Of a stretch of DNA of 64,000 nucleotides, positions 27,017-63,966 are shown in pieces. Origin of the DNA: a virus; IMG/VR virus record IMGVR_UViG_3300033405_000009. One strand, written 5' to 3'. The position numbers and the translations under genes are program-made. A model generated the notes under the pieces. It was not told where the DNA came from. It worked only from the letters and a program-made list of their open reading frames with translations, and did not search any database. Position 1 is the first letter of the stretch. Every line of letters begins with the position of its first letter.

Positions 27017-27250
27017 TCAGGATTCAATTGACTGTCGAACAATTTCCTCATCGCAGTCTTCAAGAATCTTTAACTTGGTCATCTCTTTCTTTCGGACTCC
27101 CCATCTTAGAGCCACTGGTACTTGCTGATAGTTGGCTCTCATTACGGCGCCGCAAGGTTTACAACGCCATTCAGGACAAATTATGCGCCCATTTTTGCCA
27201 GTTTCCCCAATTTTCGTCGGGACGAAGAGATACCAAGTGTGCGATTTCAT
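27017..27250 (-). CDS. zinc-ribbon small protein (C-term RQSIES), paralog A
   Basis: CPEWRCKPCG...EDCDEEIVRQSIES. Confidence 0.5.
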   Translation of the reverse strand: MKSHTWYLFVPTKIGETGKNGRIICPEWRCKPCGAVMRANYQQVPVALRWGVRKKEMTKLKILEDCDEEIVRQSIES

Positions 27251-27486
27251 GATTCCATTGACTGCCGCACGGTCTCTTCATCGCAGTCCTCGAAGATATT
27301 GGCTCTTTCACCATCTTTCGATTGAATGCCTTTCCGCATGGCCCAAAGGATAGAGGCATCTTTGGCTTTCACCACGGCACCACACGTTTTGCAATGCCAT
27401 GATGGACAGATCGCATTGTGATTTTCGTCGTTCTGACCCCAGTTTTCAGGGACGACGAGTTTCCAGGCGTGCAAGCTCACGAACAT
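27247..27486 (-). CDS. zinc-ribbon small protein (C-term RQSMES), paralog B
   Basis: CPSWHCKTCG...EDCDEETVRQSMES; tandem duplicate. Confidence 0.5.
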   Translation of the reverse strand: MFVSLHAWKLVVPENWGQNDENHNAICPSWHCKTCGAVVKAKDASILWAMRKGIQSKDGERANIFEDCDEETVRQSMES

Positions 27487-27644
27487 CTTCCTCGAGATCT
27501 AGCGGCTGGGTTTCCGGAGTCCAGCCGCATCGCTTCTTTAATGCGATGATGAGTGGATTATCTTCGTGAACTCCCTCCGGGTAATATCCGTTAGAAATCG
27601 TAAGCATCGTCGCAAGAACTTCCGCTGCGGTCGGCGGAGTCATC

Positions 27645-28457
27645 TCACGCCCCAGGAGGAACCGCTCGATTGTAACTCGGCTTCTTCAATTCGGAAACCG
27701 GAATAACGAAATCGCCGTTTGGCATACGTGTCTTGATCTCTCGTCCTACGACCTTGGACGCCAAGAAAGGACGCACTCGCATGGAAATATCGCGATCTCG
27801 GTAGTCCACTTCCCGGCCCACCGGCTCGAGACACGATCCGAAAATGACAGTATGATCCACTTCGACATAGCTCTTGAGATCCGGGACTCGTCCATCATGA
27901 CCGTCAAGAGCTGGTGCAAAGAAAGAATGCGGATCTTTCGGCTCATACCACCAGAGCATGGGCTCGGCTTCGAGCCCTTCTTTCCCGCTGAAGCAACAAA
28001 GTGCGATGGACCAATTGGGGTACCATTTCGCGTAAGCGTCGAAGATCTCCGAATTCAATGCCGGACGTTTGTGAGCAGGCACCTGATTGAGGGCGCTCGG
28101 AATATCGGTCGCGTCTTCCGCGAGCACGACCGTGTAGGCGCCGGCTTCAAAGACTTGCAACGTCCCGCGGGCCGATCCGAGTCTAAGCCCCTTCGTCATA
28201 CCTCGATCAAATGAAGGTTCGCGAATCGCAAGGCTCATGTCTTTGAGAATTCGGGTGCAAGAAGATGTATCGAGAACGTTATCTGGTCCCATGGGTGCGG
28301 ATGCTGGAAATGGCAGGATCATCGCATTTGGGCCAGAAGTAAGATTTTGCGCTCGATTTTGATAACCAAGCGTGTGGACGAGTTTATCCTTCACTCGTGC
28401 CTCAGCTGCATACAGGATGGTGTTCTTGAGACTGGCACGAGAAAGAGTAACACACAT
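27645..28457 (-). CDS. hypothetical protein
   Basis: ORF 270 aa. Confidence 0.55.
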   Translation of the reverse strand: MCVTLSRASLKNTILYAAEARVKDKLVHTLGYQNRAQNLTSGPNAMILPFPASAPMGPDNVLDTSSCTRILKDMSLAIREPSFDRGMTKGLRLGSARGTLQVFEAGAYTVVLAEDATDIPSALNQVPAHKRPALNSEIFDAYAKWYPNWSIALCCFSGKEGLEAEPMLWWYEPKDPHSFFAPALDGHDGRVPDLKSYVEVDHTVIFGSCLEPVGREVDYRDRDISMRVRPFLASKVVGREIKTRMPNGDFVIPVSELKKPSYNRAVPPGA

Positions 28458-28459
28458 AA

Positions 28460-28672
28460 TTAGCTCTCCATGATTCCTTGGACTATCGCCATATCACATA
28501 CACCTGGAGTGTGTGGATTTTCTTTGATTTTGTCGTAGTCCACCCACGCCCCACAACGTGGACATTTGTAAATAGTGAATGCCGCGGAAATGCTCTCTAT
28601 AATACCCCAATCTACTCCCGCAAGGGTTGGAGGAGCTGACGGGGCCGTAAAGACTAGTTTAGAGGATGCCAT
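28460..28672 (-). CDS. zinc-ribbon small protein (C-term QGIMES)
   Basis: CPRCGAW... Confidence 0.5.
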   Translation of the reverse strand: MASSKLVFTAPSAPPTLAGVDWGIIESISAAFTIYKCPRCGAWVDYDKIKENPHTPGVCDMAIVQGIMES

Positions 28673-29049
28673 TAGCTCAGCATAACCTCTCTTACAGCCA
28701 GTTCATTTCTCAATTTCCTTCGATGACGCCATATGACGCATGCTGCTACCCCATGAATGATAACGATAGCAGCGAGAAAAGAACTGATAAACCCCTCTTT
28801 GAAGAGGTATCCAGCCACAGGAATAGACATACCCAAGACGTTGAGGAAACGGAATTCCGATCCCAATAATTCGGTCATGGTTCTGATGTCTTTATGAATG
28901 AATTCGACTTGCTTTTCAAGAGGAAAAGTGTTGAAGCTCTCAATATTGTGGTACGGAAGCCTTCGTTGATAGGCGATTTGAATGAACATGGTGACAGAAA
29001 TGAAAACGGTTCCGATTGCCAGTGAGATCTGCGGGACCAAATCATTCAT
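28672..29049 (-). CDS. small membrane protein (C-term REVMLS)
   Basis: two hydrophobic segments. Confidence 0.5.
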   Translation of the reverse strand: MNDLVPQISLAIGTVFISVTMFIQIAYQRRLPYHNIESFNTFPLEKQVEFIHKDIRTMTELLGSEFRFLNVLGMSIPVAGYLFKEGFISSFLAAIVIIHGVAACVIWRHRRKLRNELAVREVMLS

Positions 29050-61958: not shown

Positions 61959-62198
61959 CTATGATTCCATGATTTGGAAGATCTCGAATTCGTCCGCTGA
62001 AATTTCTGCGCGGAACCATTTATTCAGTTTGTGTTTCGGAATGAGAACTTTTGCGCATTCCTCGCAGTATGCGAGAGCGATGTCTGTTATCCCATTATCA
62101 GTTCGAATCACGATGAACCTGGTCGCAACACTCGTGGCGCTGCGACACAAGTTCTGATCGGGTTTGCTGAGACAGCAACGTCTCATCAGCCGGGCCAT
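61959..62198 (-). CDS. hypothetical protein (C-term FQIMES)
   Basis: ORF 79 aa. Confidence 0.4.
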   Translation of the reverse strand: MARLMRRCCLSKPDQNLCRSATSVATRFIVIRTDNGITDIALAYCEECAKVLIPKHKLNKWFRAEISADEFEIFQIMES

Positions 62199-62743
62199 CT
62201 ACCTGAATTCAAATACTCGCACAACACCCAGGCATGGCTCATAGGCCCGTTCCTATCAATCCCGCGTCCCGTATCATGATCTCGCAGGAACACCGGGCCG
62301 GGGTGCTGCTTGGCTTTTTCGACCCAGCCTTTAACTTCCTCGTCCTGGAGCCAATGTTCCACCAAGCGTCGGAATGCAGGGACATAAATAGCCCTTCGGG
62401 CACCGCCGGGGCTGGTGATCAAAGGGATTCCTTCTCCCCGCCAAGCCCCGATCGGACGCTTCGCCTTCCCCCGACGCCAGTCTCCCATGAGAGTGAGCTC
62501 GTCTGGACGCCCTCCAAACTTGAAGATCTTGCACCCTTGCCAAAGGCATTCGACTGAAACAGCATCCACCCCTTCGTAATGATGATCGATCGCTTGGTTG
62601 GTCGGGTTACTCCAAACCCAACTCTCGAACGATCCCTTGTCTGCGGTGTCGTTGCCGCCGCACGTTGAAATTACGAGCGCTGAAGAATCCGAGATCCTGA
62701 CCCTCATCCCAACGGCTGTAAACTTACCCATCGAAACAATCAT
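62186..62743 (-). CDS. hypothetical protein
   Basis: ORF 185 aa. Confidence 0.5.
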   Translation of the reverse strand: MIVSMGKFTAVGMRVRISDSSALVISTCGGNDTADKGSFESWVWSNPTNQAIDHHYEGVDAVSVECLWQGCKIFKFGGRPDELTLMGDWRRGKAKRPIGAWRGEGIPLITSPGGARRAIYVPAFRRLVEHWLQDEEVKGWVEKAKQHPGPVFLRDHDTGRGIDRNGPMSHAWVLCEYLNSGRWPG

Positions 62744-62798
62744 CGCGTCACCTCCGATCGCTAATACTGCGCGGATCGTCGAATTTGCGGCGCGCGAA

Positions 62799-63116
62799 CT
62801 AACTTTCGAGGACGTCTTGCACTACGACTTCGGGGAAATGACTGAGGATGTACTCCTCCACTGCTTTCGGATCACGAATCACATATGTGTCCGAATTGCT
62901 AGATCCGTGATCGAAGGACGCCAACCAGAAAGTTTGGTCAGGCACTACATCGCATAGAGCCGATGTATATCCGATTCTCTGCCTTTGCTCACCAGCTGAA
63001 AACCACTTCTGGAGTGAAGGCATCTGACGCAGGTACTCGAGACATTCTTTCTTATTGCGAGCACTCTTGTATGCGGTTTGGAGGAAATTACTAATCCGGG
63101 TTGCATACTCAATCAT
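62799..63116 (-). CDS. hypothetical protein (C-term QDVLES)
   Basis: ORF 105 aa. Confidence 0.45.
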   Translation of the reverse strand: MIEYATRISNFLQTAYKSARNKKECLEYLRQMPSLQKWFSAGEQRQRIGYTSALCDVVPDQTFWLASFDHGSSNSDTYVIRDPKAVEEYILSHFPEVVVQDVLES

Positions 63117-63455
63117 TTAGCTCTCCATGATATCTTCGACGATTCCGAGAGATACTTTCTCGATAGCATCCTCTGTATCTTGACGCATCTTAGTTACGAG
63201 AAGATTGGCGTCCCGAGTAGCCGCGCGAGCGATGAGAGCTGACGGGAAGCAGGTGTTCGTAAACCCGCAAAACGCGCACGTTGCCAAGAAACTGGGCGGC
63301 ATCGTGTGCTGTTCCTTGAACTCGCTTGCATCGCCTTCATTCGTCGCACGACATGAAGTGCACTTGAACTGAATGGGTGGTGCTTTGACAACTCTCATCA
63401 GTAGAGGTCCTCGTGCGTCCCGATCTCGTCCGAAGCGCCACGCGCGTTGCACCAC
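63117..63455 (-). CDS. zinc-ribbon protein (C-term EDIMES)
   Basis: CTSCRATN...CAFCGFTN. Confidence 0.45.
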   Translation of the reverse strand: MVQRAWRFGRDRDARGPLLMRVVKAPPIQFKCTSCRATNEGDASEFKEQHTMPPSFLATCAFCGFTNTCFPSALIARAATRDANLLVTKMRQDTEDAIEKVSLGIVEDIMES

Positions 63456-63685
63456 TCCTTCACGAAATCCGAGATCTTGTCAACGGTGAAGTTGAAGATC
63501 GCGAATCCGGTATGCTGCCGCGAGACCAAGGCCATGAAGCCGGGTGGGTCGACACTCGGTTCCTCAAGCAAGAATTCCAACCCTCGAGAGCCGAACTTCT
63601 TTTCGAGTGCGTCTCGCAGAGCACGGAGTTCGAACTTTTCCACCTCTTCCGCGTTCTCTGCCACGACATGTTTACGGTCGATCAT
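63398..63685 (-). CDS. hypothetical protein
   Basis: ORF 95 aa; start ATG overlaps upstream stop (ATGA). Confidence 0.4.
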   Translation of the reverse strand: MIDRKHVVAENAEEVEKFELRALRDALEKKFGSRGLEFLLEEPSVDPPGFMALVSRQHTGFAIFNFTVDKISDFVKEWCNARGASDEIGTHEDLY

Positions 63686-63966
63686 GACTCCATCACTTCC
63701 GAGACGGTCAATTCATTGACAGCTTCTTCGACGTCCACAACCGTCATCTCCCGAGCAATCTTCTTGTGGGAACGCACAAACTTGAGGAGATCTTCAACAA
63801 CCTCCCATTTCTCGTTCAAATGTTGGATGATGCGGAAGATCTCGACAGCGGACAATCCTCCGAAAGAGCGACTTCGACCTCCTTTGCGGTAACCCGTAGA
63901 ACCCTTCTCTTTGAAGAAGTCCACCAGGGCTTTCGTCCTGGCGTGCTCTCTCTTCTCTCGATTCAT
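63682..63966 (-). CDS. hypothetical protein (C-term SEVMES)
   Basis: ORF 94 aa. Confidence 0.4.
   Translation of the reverse strand: MNREKREHARTKALVDFFKEKGSTGYRKGGRSRSFGGLSAVEIFRIIQHLNEKWEVVEDLLKFVRSHKKIAREMTVVDVEEAVNELTVSEVMES

Follow-up and report, generated by a model that had tools for sequence, protein, structure and literature searches.

Why should dozens of small and apparently unrelated genes of one huge phage end on nearly the same residues? The question is raised by a 64-kb stretch (GC 50.5%) of a very large phage, IMG/VR record IMGVR_UViG_3300033405_000009, which we call the window. The initial annotation, made from the letters alone, had noticed there that most genes between 27 and 64 kb end on the tetrapeptide V/I-M-E-S. 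We find that this motif belongs to a longer element, hereafter the tail, which is a protein-level C-terminal tag, predicted to form an amphipathic, acidic helix some 10-12 residues long with the consensus ([CH]-[DN]-E-x-)[ILV]-V-x-x-[VI]-M-E-S-COOH. In one sub-clade of huge phages that encode a homologue of the major vault protein (MVP), about half of the small accessory proteins specific to the lineage are tagged in this way.

Results

A tail at the very end of half of the genes

In a six-frame count of the window, the strict motif [VI]MES stands directly before a stop codon 22 times and elsewhere only 4 times, and MES-stop is the commonest three-residue end of open reading frames (ORFs), with 25 cases against 10 for the runner-up. 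The DNA pattern RTSATGGARTC matches 18 times where shuffled sequences predict 0.53, and 15 of these 18 matches run into an in-frame stop. Genes of at least 40 aa were called with a codon-usage and dynamic-programming caller that is blind to the motif, and their last eight residues were scored with a position weight matrix (PWM) by leave-one-out, at a threshold of 5.3 bits. By this measure 66 of 134 genes carry the tail, with the pattern [ILVMT]-[VI]-x-x-[VI]-[ML]-E-S-stop and a median score of 15.7 bits, as against 16 of 15,667 internal 8-mers (0.1%) that exceed the threshold. Chance or composition is ruled out by the shuffles and the internal 8-mers, and also by control phages (1 of 441 genes) and a scan of 596 Gb of cellular genomes, both described below.

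Tails are found on 51 of 86 genes in the 26.9-64 kb block, so that the signal is stronger than first noted, on 13 of 39 genes among the tRNA genes and on 2 of 9 in 1-5.9 kb. Five of the genes listed earlier outside the block (8497, 8841, 10919, 15149 and 16821) are indeed tailed. The one at 406 (421-657) is not a terminal case because it ends VMESGNHH-stop, with VMES four residues before the end.

The tetrapeptide itself proved too narrow a description, since conserved hydrophobic residues at -8, -7, -4 and -3 outline an amphipathic helix of 8-12 residues. Counted back from the stop, position -8 is I, V, L, T or M, -7 is V in 49 of the 66 and I in 11, -4 is V or I in 62, -3 is M in 54 and L in 10, -2 is E in 44 and -1 is S in 46, the final residue otherwise being A, E, T, N, Q or C. 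Also frequent are E at -14 and -10, C or H at -12, D or N at -11, R, K or A at -6 and E or Q at -5, and hydrophobic residues are conserved at -12/-11 as well. The last 14 residues have a mean net charge of -2.3 in tailed genes compared with +0.2 in the others. Hydrophobic pairs spaced by four residues would fall on one face of an alpha-helix. An example of a tail is ...DCDEEIVRQVMES.

The tail is useful for annotation, as it reveals real small genes that automatic callers miss. The tail-bearing ORF at 38635-38850 (-), for instance, is not among the database gene calls, which place an ORF of the opposite strand there. Tail-bearing ORFs at 47069-47469 (-) and 53306-53536 (+) were missed or mis-started by a greedy ORF caller.

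Selection acts on the peptide

All six codons encode Ser(-1) (TCA 15, TCG 10, AGC 8, TCT 5, TCC 5, AGT 3), all four encode Val(-7), and Leu(-3) appears as TTG and as CTN. Third codon positions within the tail hold 0.05-0.35 bits of information compared with 0.6-2.0 bits at first and second positions, the Met codon being the sole exception. Each of the three stop codons follows the tail (TGA 35, TAA 22, TAG 9), and the downstream context comprises 16 ATGA overlaps, 4 one-base overlaps, 34 gaps of any size and 9 convergent ends. Because third positions are nearly free and six Ser codons, three stop codons and every downstream arrangement are in use, selection on the tail acts at the peptide level, as the initial annotation had argued.

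At 34509-34512, 37954-37957 and 8841-8844 tail-bearing genes converge and share 4 nt (CTAA/TTAG), and the facing tails form a perfect inverted repeat, for example ATGGAGAgctaagTCTCCAT. Such a repeat looks like a by-product of the convergent ends, one that might also act as a bidirectional terminator.

Carriers of the tail: one hidden family and many orphans

None of 63 carriers has a Pfam match at E < 0.01, compared with 16 of 51 scanned tail-less window proteins (Fisher p = 6e-7), and PHROGs matches were obtained for 2 of the 63. The recognisable enzymes and proteins (RtcB, ligase, MVP, EF-Tu and endonuclease VII) lack the tail, just as had been noted. A further 48 carriers from relatives gave weak domain matches only, one of them to the L7/L12 C-terminal domain. 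Once the tail is trimmed off, blastp detects one related pair in the window, and blastp and phmmer add cross-genome orthologue pairs.

A family is nonetheless hidden among these proteins. Some 20 small carriers share, by eye and in an alignment (A2), the motif HxW...CxxCG...(D)C[DN]E immediately ahead of the tail. A profile of this alignment has 106 matches among 1.84e9 representative proteins, of which 91 are small and tail-ended, and a hidden Markov model (HMM) of those 91, built without their last eight residues, recovers 15 window proteins. Roughly one carrier in four is therefore a member of a single zinc-ribbon-like family. Simple paralogy is rejected as the whole explanation, since this family covers only about 15 of the 66 carriers. 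The other 50 or so, which span 42-240 aa, resemble neither the family nor each other, so that the carriers were called unrelated with good reason for about 50 and wrongly for about 15.

The carriers outside the zinc-ribbon family are diverse: they include a membrane-protein-like protein (28672-29049), a Cys-rich and coiled-coil protein (41150-41467) and, just outside the window, a protein resembling the L7/L12 C-terminal domain. The latter (135 aa; 7952-8356 of L022, the locus to the right of the window) is tail-bearing and its match is weak (Pfam E 2.6e-5); the same phage encodes EF-Tu.

AlphaFold2 (AF2) models differ between the two kinds of carrier. In the zinc-ribbon protein at 28460 the tail is predicted as helix 58-68 of 69 residues, in a model with a predicted local distance difference test (pLDDT) score of 61. 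The helix of this family begins at the conserved Cys and therefore is tied to the small domain. For the protein at 41150 the model has a confident long helix (pLDDT > 90), an unstructured 13-residue linker (85-97) and a terminal helix (98-104 of 105) that is not placed (pLDDT < 50), which is the behaviour to be expected of a free docking peptide.

The tail marks a sub-clade of MVP-encoding phages

Presence or absence of the tail is consistent within all orthologue groups that could be formed. The family of the 41150 protein has four orthologues with 45-51% identity, which end IVRNIMES, AVRDIMDS, LIRHIMDS and VIRTVMDS, and a distant relative that has only the N-terminal Cys-rich domain in common bears no tail. 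This uncharacterised Cys/His-rich domain, CPGxGRCHGxxxWCSxCGDxDLxCDxPECDxH, is shared by 41150-41467 (-) and the database proteins P0123-P0126 at 45-65% identity, and it also occurs in a tail-less 154-aa protein. Two outcomes had been named beforehand as speaking against a peptide tag, namely a motif equally common out of frame and its absence from orthologues. Instead, the tail is kept in the orthologues of related phages and selection acts on the peptide.

The MVP homologue sits in the middle of the tail-bearing block and served as the marker for finding relatives. It has 6,547 database proteins at E < 1e-50, on contigs of up to 463 kb, and it recurs at 43% identity in the 'uncultured phage' genomes LR756501 (735 kb) and LR756500 (462 kb). 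Viral MVPs have been noted earlier (bioRxiv 10.1101/2023.11.10.566534). Relatives with tails fall on one branch of the MVP tree: L002 (a 436-kb contig), L018, L019, L021, L058 and L059. MVP phages outside this branch have the tail on 1 of 441 genes, including 0 of 60 in LR756501 and 0 of 75 in LR756500. Of the additional genomes examined, two within the branch have tails and two outside it have the tail on 0 of 28 and 1 of 35 genes. The tail thus marks one sub-clade of MVP-encoding huge phages.

The back-translated DNA pattern of I-V-x-x-[VI]-M-E-S-stop has 18 matches on the 436-kb contig in IMG/VR and there uncovered more multi-tail genomes of 427 kb (GC 37%), 393 kb and 41 kb, so that the tail-bearing genomes span a GC of 37-58%. 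The records of three of these contigs are IMGVR_UViG_3300032782_000001 (436 kb), 3300028920_000001 (427 kb) and 3300012980_000004 (393 kb). In 596 Gb of bacterial and archaeal genomes the same pattern gives 74 scattered single matches, and no locus with two tails was found there. Window proteins recur on metagenomic contigs of up to 98 kb. Megablast of 20 kb of the window against the phage collection gave no match, and neither the ligase nor a 248-aa carrier, used as queries, led to the related 436-kb genome.

In huge phages, the MVP gene usually adjoins the replication genes DnaB, primase, DnaJ and PolA (loci L002-L021, L058-L061 and L136-L178). Two MVP phages outside the sub-clade, L005 and L006, hold tandem arrays of about 30 ORFs of 70-100 aa, many ending ...L...E[VF]..L. 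By eye these look like paralogues of an ordinary same-length family, an expansion of another kind than the tail. The RtcB of a related phage (L018 6982-9300) has 772 aa, compared with 403 aa in the window, and possibly contains an intein or insertion.

Genomic setting

The coordinates of the tail-bearing ORFs and of the MVP homologue are collected in Table 1. To the right, the tail-bearing block extends about 8 kb past the window and holds 10 more tails there; beyond the left end genes are larger and have 0 tails. A MoxR-type AAA_5 ATPase and a DUF2201 protein (VWA plus putative metallopeptidase) lie inside the continuation of the block (L022 1-5614). The two may work together in chaperoning or remodelling and are a candidate machine for handling the tail. 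At the left edge of the window, with a RyR-domain protein (654-965, -) and a tail-fibre-like protein with collagen repeats and K1-lyase_C (1445-2080, +), the genome turns to larger, structural-looking genes without the tail.

The window also holds 43 tRNA genes that cover most amino acids, all on the minus strand in one 20-kb array (5895-25932). The array is interleaved with small ORFs, 13 of them tail-bearing, and with genes for an HNH endonuclease, EF-Tu (19927-21096), a HAD_SAK_2 RNA-repair domain and an FGE-sulfatase-like protein. The permuted 'tmRNA*' that ARAGORN reports at 18057-18690 is probably a false positive and overlaps three tRNA genes. Scattered through the tRNA genes are four paralogues, three of about 140 aa and one of 96 aa, that are 24-38% identical where aligned and have neither a Pfam match nor a tail (13299-13718, 16156-16596 and 17683-18114, all -, and 25206-25496, +); they could be mobile or homing elements. 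Further products of the window are RtcB, an ATP-dependent DNA ligase, endonuclease VII (26138-26560), a 5'-nucleotidase and a nucleoside hydrolase.

Table 1. Tail-bearing ORFs of the window and the MVP homologue. The residues given for each ORF are followed directly by the stop codon; stop coordinates are exact and 5' ends approximate. PWM scores are in bits; ZnR, zinc-ribbon family.
Coordinates	Strand	Feature and C-terminal end	PWM	Further evidence
2768..3193	-	ORF ...ENMAIVAEVMSM	15.3	
5359..5805	-	ORF ...IRQIIIGEVLSA	8.7	
6901..7029	+	ORF ...CDTAIVKFIMEN	16.9	
7582..7785	-	ZnR ORF, degenerate tail ...CDEEVLHQVLQT	below threshold	ZnR HMM E 4.5e-8
8497..8844	+	ORF ...EDLRAIAEVMLS	15.1	
8841..9116	-	ORF ...FGMEAVKEVMES	20.2	
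9554..9730	-	ZnR ORF ...CDIELCKKIMEE	12.1	ZnR HMM
10083..10289	-	ORF ...EEEFVVSEIMTT	13.6	
10617..10745	-	ORF ...RRFAMIEQILES	14.7	
10919..11098	-	ORF ...EEEEIIFRIMES	18.0	
11818..12180	-	ORF ...SDICIVNAIMTS	15.1	
12177..12443	-	ORF ...QEELFCFEILET	10.4	
15149..15478	-	ORF ...QIQEIVEDVMES	20.6	
16821..17069	+	ORF ...FEYLCVQEVMES	20.9	
21735..22046	-	ORF ...HKLFLVYVVMCS	13.3	
22723..22938	+	ZnR ORF ...CEEAIVKFIMEN	16.9	ZnR HMM
27017..27250	-	ZnR ORF ...CDEEIVRQSIES	14.4	ZnR HMM
27247..27486	-	ZnR ORF ...CDEETVRQSMES, paralogue of 27017	17.3	blastp pair
28460..28672	-	ZnR ORF ...CDMAIVQGIMES	21.1	AF2 C-terminal helix 58-68
28672..29049	-	Membrane-protein-like ORF ...RNELAVREVMLS	17.5	hydrophobic segment, then RHRRK just before tail
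29046..29270	-	ZnR ORF ...CEEMIIYEIMHS	17.8	ZnR HMM
29288..29491	-	ZnR ORF ...CNDSIVRNVLES	18.5	L002 orthologue end ...VVDNVMES
29554..29820	-	ORF ...VDFVEVRKIMVS	12.3	L002 orthologue end ...IVRDVMGS
29821..30300	-	ORF ...ARRKIVEKIMES	19.6	
30297..30506	-	ZnR ORF ...CPYQIVKEVMDQ	15.5	ZnR HMM
30674..33232	+	MVP homologue, 852 aa, no tail		Pfam MVP_shoulder 9.6e-30, Vault_3 8e-10
33938..34228	+	ORF ...HDLQIVRSMMEC	14.2	
34222..34512	+	ORF ...RNLRKIAAIMES	15.5	
34509..34736	-	ORF ...SNLSVVKDVMET	15.8	L002 orthologue end ...AVSQVMDT
35496..36008	-	ORF ...EDLLIVEAVMSS	15.8	
37754..37957	+	ORF ...HASDCVREVMES	21.5	
37954..38154	-	ORF ...CLLMRVAEVMEA	15.4	
38366..38665	-	ZnR ORF ...CNYEMVRGILES	16.5	ZnR HMM
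38635..38850	-	ORF ...HPECIVRHVMES, not a database gene call	20.7	
40968..41153	-	ZnR ORF ...CNEQTIRTVLES	13.3	ZnR HMM
41150..41467	-	Cys-rich domain, coiled coil, linker and tail ...KRINIVRNIMES	22.2	tail kept in orthologues P0123-P0125; AF2
41675..42172	-	ORF with C-terminal ZnR module ...CDEEKVRQVMES	20.0	profile match as P0141; ZnR HMM
42468..42737	-	ORF ...INSHTVQEIMNS	18.9	L018 orthologue end ...LVEEIMDG
43803..44054	-	ORF ...VEEGLVFEVMNI	12.8	
44024..44308	-	ZnR ORF ...IEECLVGEIMGS	13.7	ZnR HMM
45186..45464	-	ZnR ORF ...CDVLMIARIMNE	10.8	ZnR HMM
45461..46165	-	ORF ...LQEASVANVMLS	14.6	
46162..46692	-	ORF ...MRLADIREIMEQ	14.8	
47069..47275	-	ZnR ORF ...CDVMFCIEVMDS	11.5	ZnR HMM
47272..47469	-	ORF ...EKQIVLYEVMES	16.0	
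49022..49459	-	ORF ...QNQQMVREVMES	22.3	
49654..50100	-	ORF ...GNNKKVREVMTA	14.5	
50149..50790	-	ORF ...WDLCSVAGVMES	17.4	
50815..51483	-	ORF ...WDETVTASVLES	9.8	
51480..51881	-	ORF ...HPECVVAGIMAA	10.7	
51971..52534	+	ORF ...REAEVVVGVMQS	11.7	
52587..53309	+	ORF ...LNECLVESTMES, 240 aa	12.7	sole homologue itself among 5.8e9 proteins
53306..53536	+	ORF ...LNEYLVSLVMES	15.5	
54614..55132	+	ORF ...CNENICANIIES	14.8	
55132..55380	+	ORF ...FCELDVQEVMLA	13.1	
56108..56533	-	ORF ...DRVKAVKDVMES	18.6	apparent counterparts (C-terminal match by eye) L033 ...VKVVKEVMES, L053 ...VKAIKSIHES
56543..56929	-	ORF ...HPNCIVSRVMES	19.4	
57589..58044	-	ORF ...VDQMTVSEVLNS	14.3	
58045..58482	-	ORF ...HDLIIVYEIMEC	20.4	
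59520..59999	-	ORF ...IDEHTVQTVLES	14.6	
60356..60709	-	ORF ...IIEIPIKQIMEE	12.4	
60711..60923	-	ORF ...HDEAIVYQIMED	17.8	in ZnR alignment A2; profile match as P0213
61208..61423	-	ORF ...YGEYIVWQIMES	21.0	
61435..61914	-	ORF ...HPIEMVKEIMES	21.7	
61959..62111	-	ORF ...ADEFEIFQIMES	16.3	
62799..63116	-	ORF ...FPEVVVQDVLES	15.8	
63117..63398	-	ORF ...VSLGIVEDIMES	20.6	
63682..63966	-	ORF ...VNELTVSEVMES	20.3	

Discussion

What could a terminal helix on so many otherwise dissimilar proteins be good for? The closest likeness we found is to the encapsulation peptides of metabolosomes, the enzyme-filled bacterial microcompartments (BMCs). Such a peptide is a short amphipathic helix at a protein's end, attached through a linker of poor conservation (PMC4594438); EutC1-19 alone sends GFP and beta-galactosidase to Eut shells (PMC3299773), and encapsulation peptides can bundle together and drive self-assembly or co-condensation of tagged cargo without a shell (PMC12339742). 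Escherichia coli K-12 eutC (NC_000913.3) begins MDQKQIEEIVRSVMASMGQ, which is EutC(1-19). Its residues 9-16, IVRSVMAS, score 16.0 bits on the tail matrix (P = 1.6e-6 for a random 8-mer), far above anything else in the 15 proteins encoded by the region examined (13 eut genes, eutR and hemF). Between E8 and S17, the residues that EutC has in common with the consensus of the tail are E(-10), I(-8), V(-7), R(-6), V(-4), M(-3) and S(-1). Encapsulation peptides and the tail also share the short terminal amphipathic helix with hydrophobic pairs four residues apart, and both occur on otherwise unrelated proteins. With respect to a linker the tail carriers are divided: the 41150 family has one and the zinc-ribbon family has none. 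In the literature that we searched, on huge phages, C-terminal motifs and vault proteins in phages, the tail is not described. The statement that such a tag is not a described feature hence holds for the phenomenon and fails for the peptide, which is nearly identical to that of EutC.

We therefore lean, tentatively and with somewhat less than even confidence, towards a tail that works like a metabolosome encapsulation peptide, that is, as a sorting or co-assembly tag for common docking or bundling. Its hydrophobic face (-8, -7, -4, -3) would dock on a partner surface common to all tails, or the tails would bundle together, and dozens of unrelated proteins would thereby be gathered in a single assembly, which might be a shell of protein, the inside of the virion, or a condensate or 'factory'. 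The common partner, and co-localisation as the outcome, are what we infer. Possible partners are an MVP shell, a host microcompartment shell, the capsid interior or scaffold, and other tails in a bundle. MVP is one candidate, the initial annotation having suggested that tagged cargo might be loaded into the vault-like shell, and it alone cannot explain the tail because most MVP phages are tail-less. A more specific scenario, which we regard as doubtful, is that the sub-clade addresses a large share of its accessory proteome to a phage-made compartment or condensate through a peptide interchangeable with encapsulation peptides, the shell being its own MVP particle or a hijacked host microcompartment. 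On that scenario more than 60 proteins in 64 kb, and probably more than 100 per genome, would be so addressed.

Several observations weigh against an encapsulation-like role. The EutC match is post hoc, and two other encapsulation peptides, PduD(1-20) at 5.5 bits and PduP(1-18) at 5.3 bits (sequences from PMC5405515), only just reach the tail threshold, at the 99.9th percentile. Carriers of encapsulation peptides are encoded together with BMC shell genes (BMC-H/T, PF00936; BMC-P, PF03319). With EutM, EutK, EutL and EutN as queries, phmmer found nothing at E up to 10 among six-frame ORFs of 302 kb of clade DNA, which covers part of each genome of about 400 kb. A scan of IMG/VR for close relatives likewise found no shell gene in these phages, the sole EutM-like gene lying on an unrelated contig. 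The pair E(-10) and R/K(-6), which would mimic the E7-R11 salt bridge of PduP, shows no covariation (both in 9 of 66 tails, about 10 expected). At about 10-12 aa the tail falls short of the 15-20 aa typical of encapsulation peptides, and its carriers are phage orphan ORFs (ORFans), not metabolic enzymes like BMC cargo. It stops exactly after Ser, whereas encapsulation peptides need not end the protein, which hints at recognition of a free C-terminus, no known trait of such peptides. In the zinc-ribbon family it directly follows a probable metal ligand without a linker and could simply be part of the fold. Finally, MVP is common in huge phages that lack the tail.

It is possible, if unlikely in our view, that the tail instead governs stability. 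It would then be a degron at the C-terminus, or else a peptide that docks on an AAA+ protease or adaptor of the host or the phage, and accessory and probably early proteins would be cleared, or handed to a protease, together. A stop directly after Ser at the extreme C-terminus is typical of C-terminal recognition systems, and the carriers are small accessory ORFans. In the membrane-protein-like carrier, RHRRK between the hydrophobic segment and the tail suggests, by the positive-inside rule, a cytoplasmic tail, and the MoxR-type AAA_5 and DUF2201 VWA/metallopeptidase genes stand in the continuation of the block. However, known bacterial degrons of the ssrA/ClpX type end on non-polar (ssrA LAA-like) or basic (MuA-like RRKKAI) residues, polar or acidic ends being stabilising, and the tail, with E(-2) and S(-1) in most carriers, does not match such an end. 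Moreover, no protease gene was identified among the window proteins scanned, and turnover leaves the close EutC match unexplained.

Equally improbable is that no common partner exists and that all carriers form one very fast-evolving multigene family, with the tail as the conserved last helix of its fold. About 15 window proteins and 91 clusters among the 1.84e9 representatives do form a family of the type HxW...CxxCG...DC[DN]E-tail, the AF2 model has the helix of this family start at a probable zinc ligand, and zinc-ribbon expansions have been described in jumbo phages (PMC7824862). Yet around 50 of the 66 carriers have no match to the family HMM after removal of the tail, and these range in length from 42 to 240 aa and in kind from membrane-protein-like to coiled-coil and L12-CTD-like proteins. 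In the 41150 protein the tail is behind a flexible linker, its N-terminal domain being tail-less elsewhere, and were the helix purely structural, one would hardly expect all proteins to stop at exactly the same residue.

Less probable still is a signal for virion packaging: by docking on the scaffold, the portal or the inside of the capsid, the tail would have effectors packed in the very large head and injected with the DNA. Internal proteins of T4 are loaded into heads by terminal peptide tags (the capsid-targeting sequence), which provides a precedent, although here the tag is C-terminal; the carriers look like fast-evolving accessory or effector proteins, and I-M-E-S resembles the T4-type prohead-protease site L/I-x-E. 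On the other hand, more than 66 cargo proteins from 64 kb alone would far exceed any known head content, and Pfam scans of about 50 tail-less window proteins revealed no head, scaffold or protease genes nearby. An RNA or DNA element at gene ends that happens to be read in frame, serving termination, re-initiation or recombination, had been offered as the alternative from the start and is effectively refuted: TCATGA and ATGA junctions are frequent and convergent pairs yield inverted repeats, but third codon positions are hardly constrained, Ser is written both as TCN and as AGY, the tail precedes any stop codon in any downstream context and is kept at GC 37% and at GC 58%, and the DNA pattern almost never occurs out of frame.

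Were the tail a sorting signal, the end of a gene would alone predict the destination of more than 60 ORFans, with one peptide and one partner to find, and phages would encode a protein-sorting system that operates in bacteria by a readable postcode; bacterial viruses are not known to have a proteome-wide sorting signal. It could also reveal a role for the widespread MVP homologues of phages, or a use of encapsulation-peptide chemistry without a microcompartment, and it would supply synthetic biology with a ready-made 10-residue tag.

Comparison with known systems

Encapsulin cargo-loading peptides are, like the tail, short C-terminal tags, and they load diverse cargo into a protein shell. They are Gly/Ser-rich and extended (for example ...SLGIGSLKG) and are bound by an HK97-fold shell encoded beside the cargo gene, whereas the tail is predicted to be helical, is acidic and is not Gly-rich; Pfam scans of about 50 tail-less window proteins, which are part of the genes, found no shell of the encapsulin/HK97 type. 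In vaults, the INT domain of VPARP binds MVP and so targets cargo. This is a folded domain of about 160 aa, in contrast to the 8-12 residues of the tail, and many tail carriers measure merely 42-100 aa in total; the MVP homologue is here encoded in the midst of the tail-bearing block. A PDZ-type ligand requires a hydrophobic last residue (x-S/T-x-hydrophobic or hydrophobic-x-hydrophobic), unlike a tail that ends on Ser in 46 of 66 cases. SHOCT, a bacterial Pfam domain of about 28 aa, resembles the tail in being short, mostly C-terminal and found on unrelated proteins, and it differs in that tail carriers have no Pfam match at all at the cutoff used. SHOCT and similar short C-terminal domains occur on many architectures (PMC3581485).

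Bacillus phage G has a lineage-specific zinc-ribbon expansion of about 35 copies (Iyer et al. 2021, PMC7824862). It is comparable in kind to the 15 or so paralogous zinc-ribbon carriers of the window, both consisting of many small CxxC...C proteins in one genome. Unlike that expansion, the tail reaches about 50 proteins outside the zinc-ribbon family. Its carriers number more than 60 per 64 kb compared with a handful of cargo proteins per BMC locus. Terminal sorting or assembly peptides as such are known, and what is unusual about the tail is its phage context, the lack of a recognisable matching shell and its proteome-wide scale.

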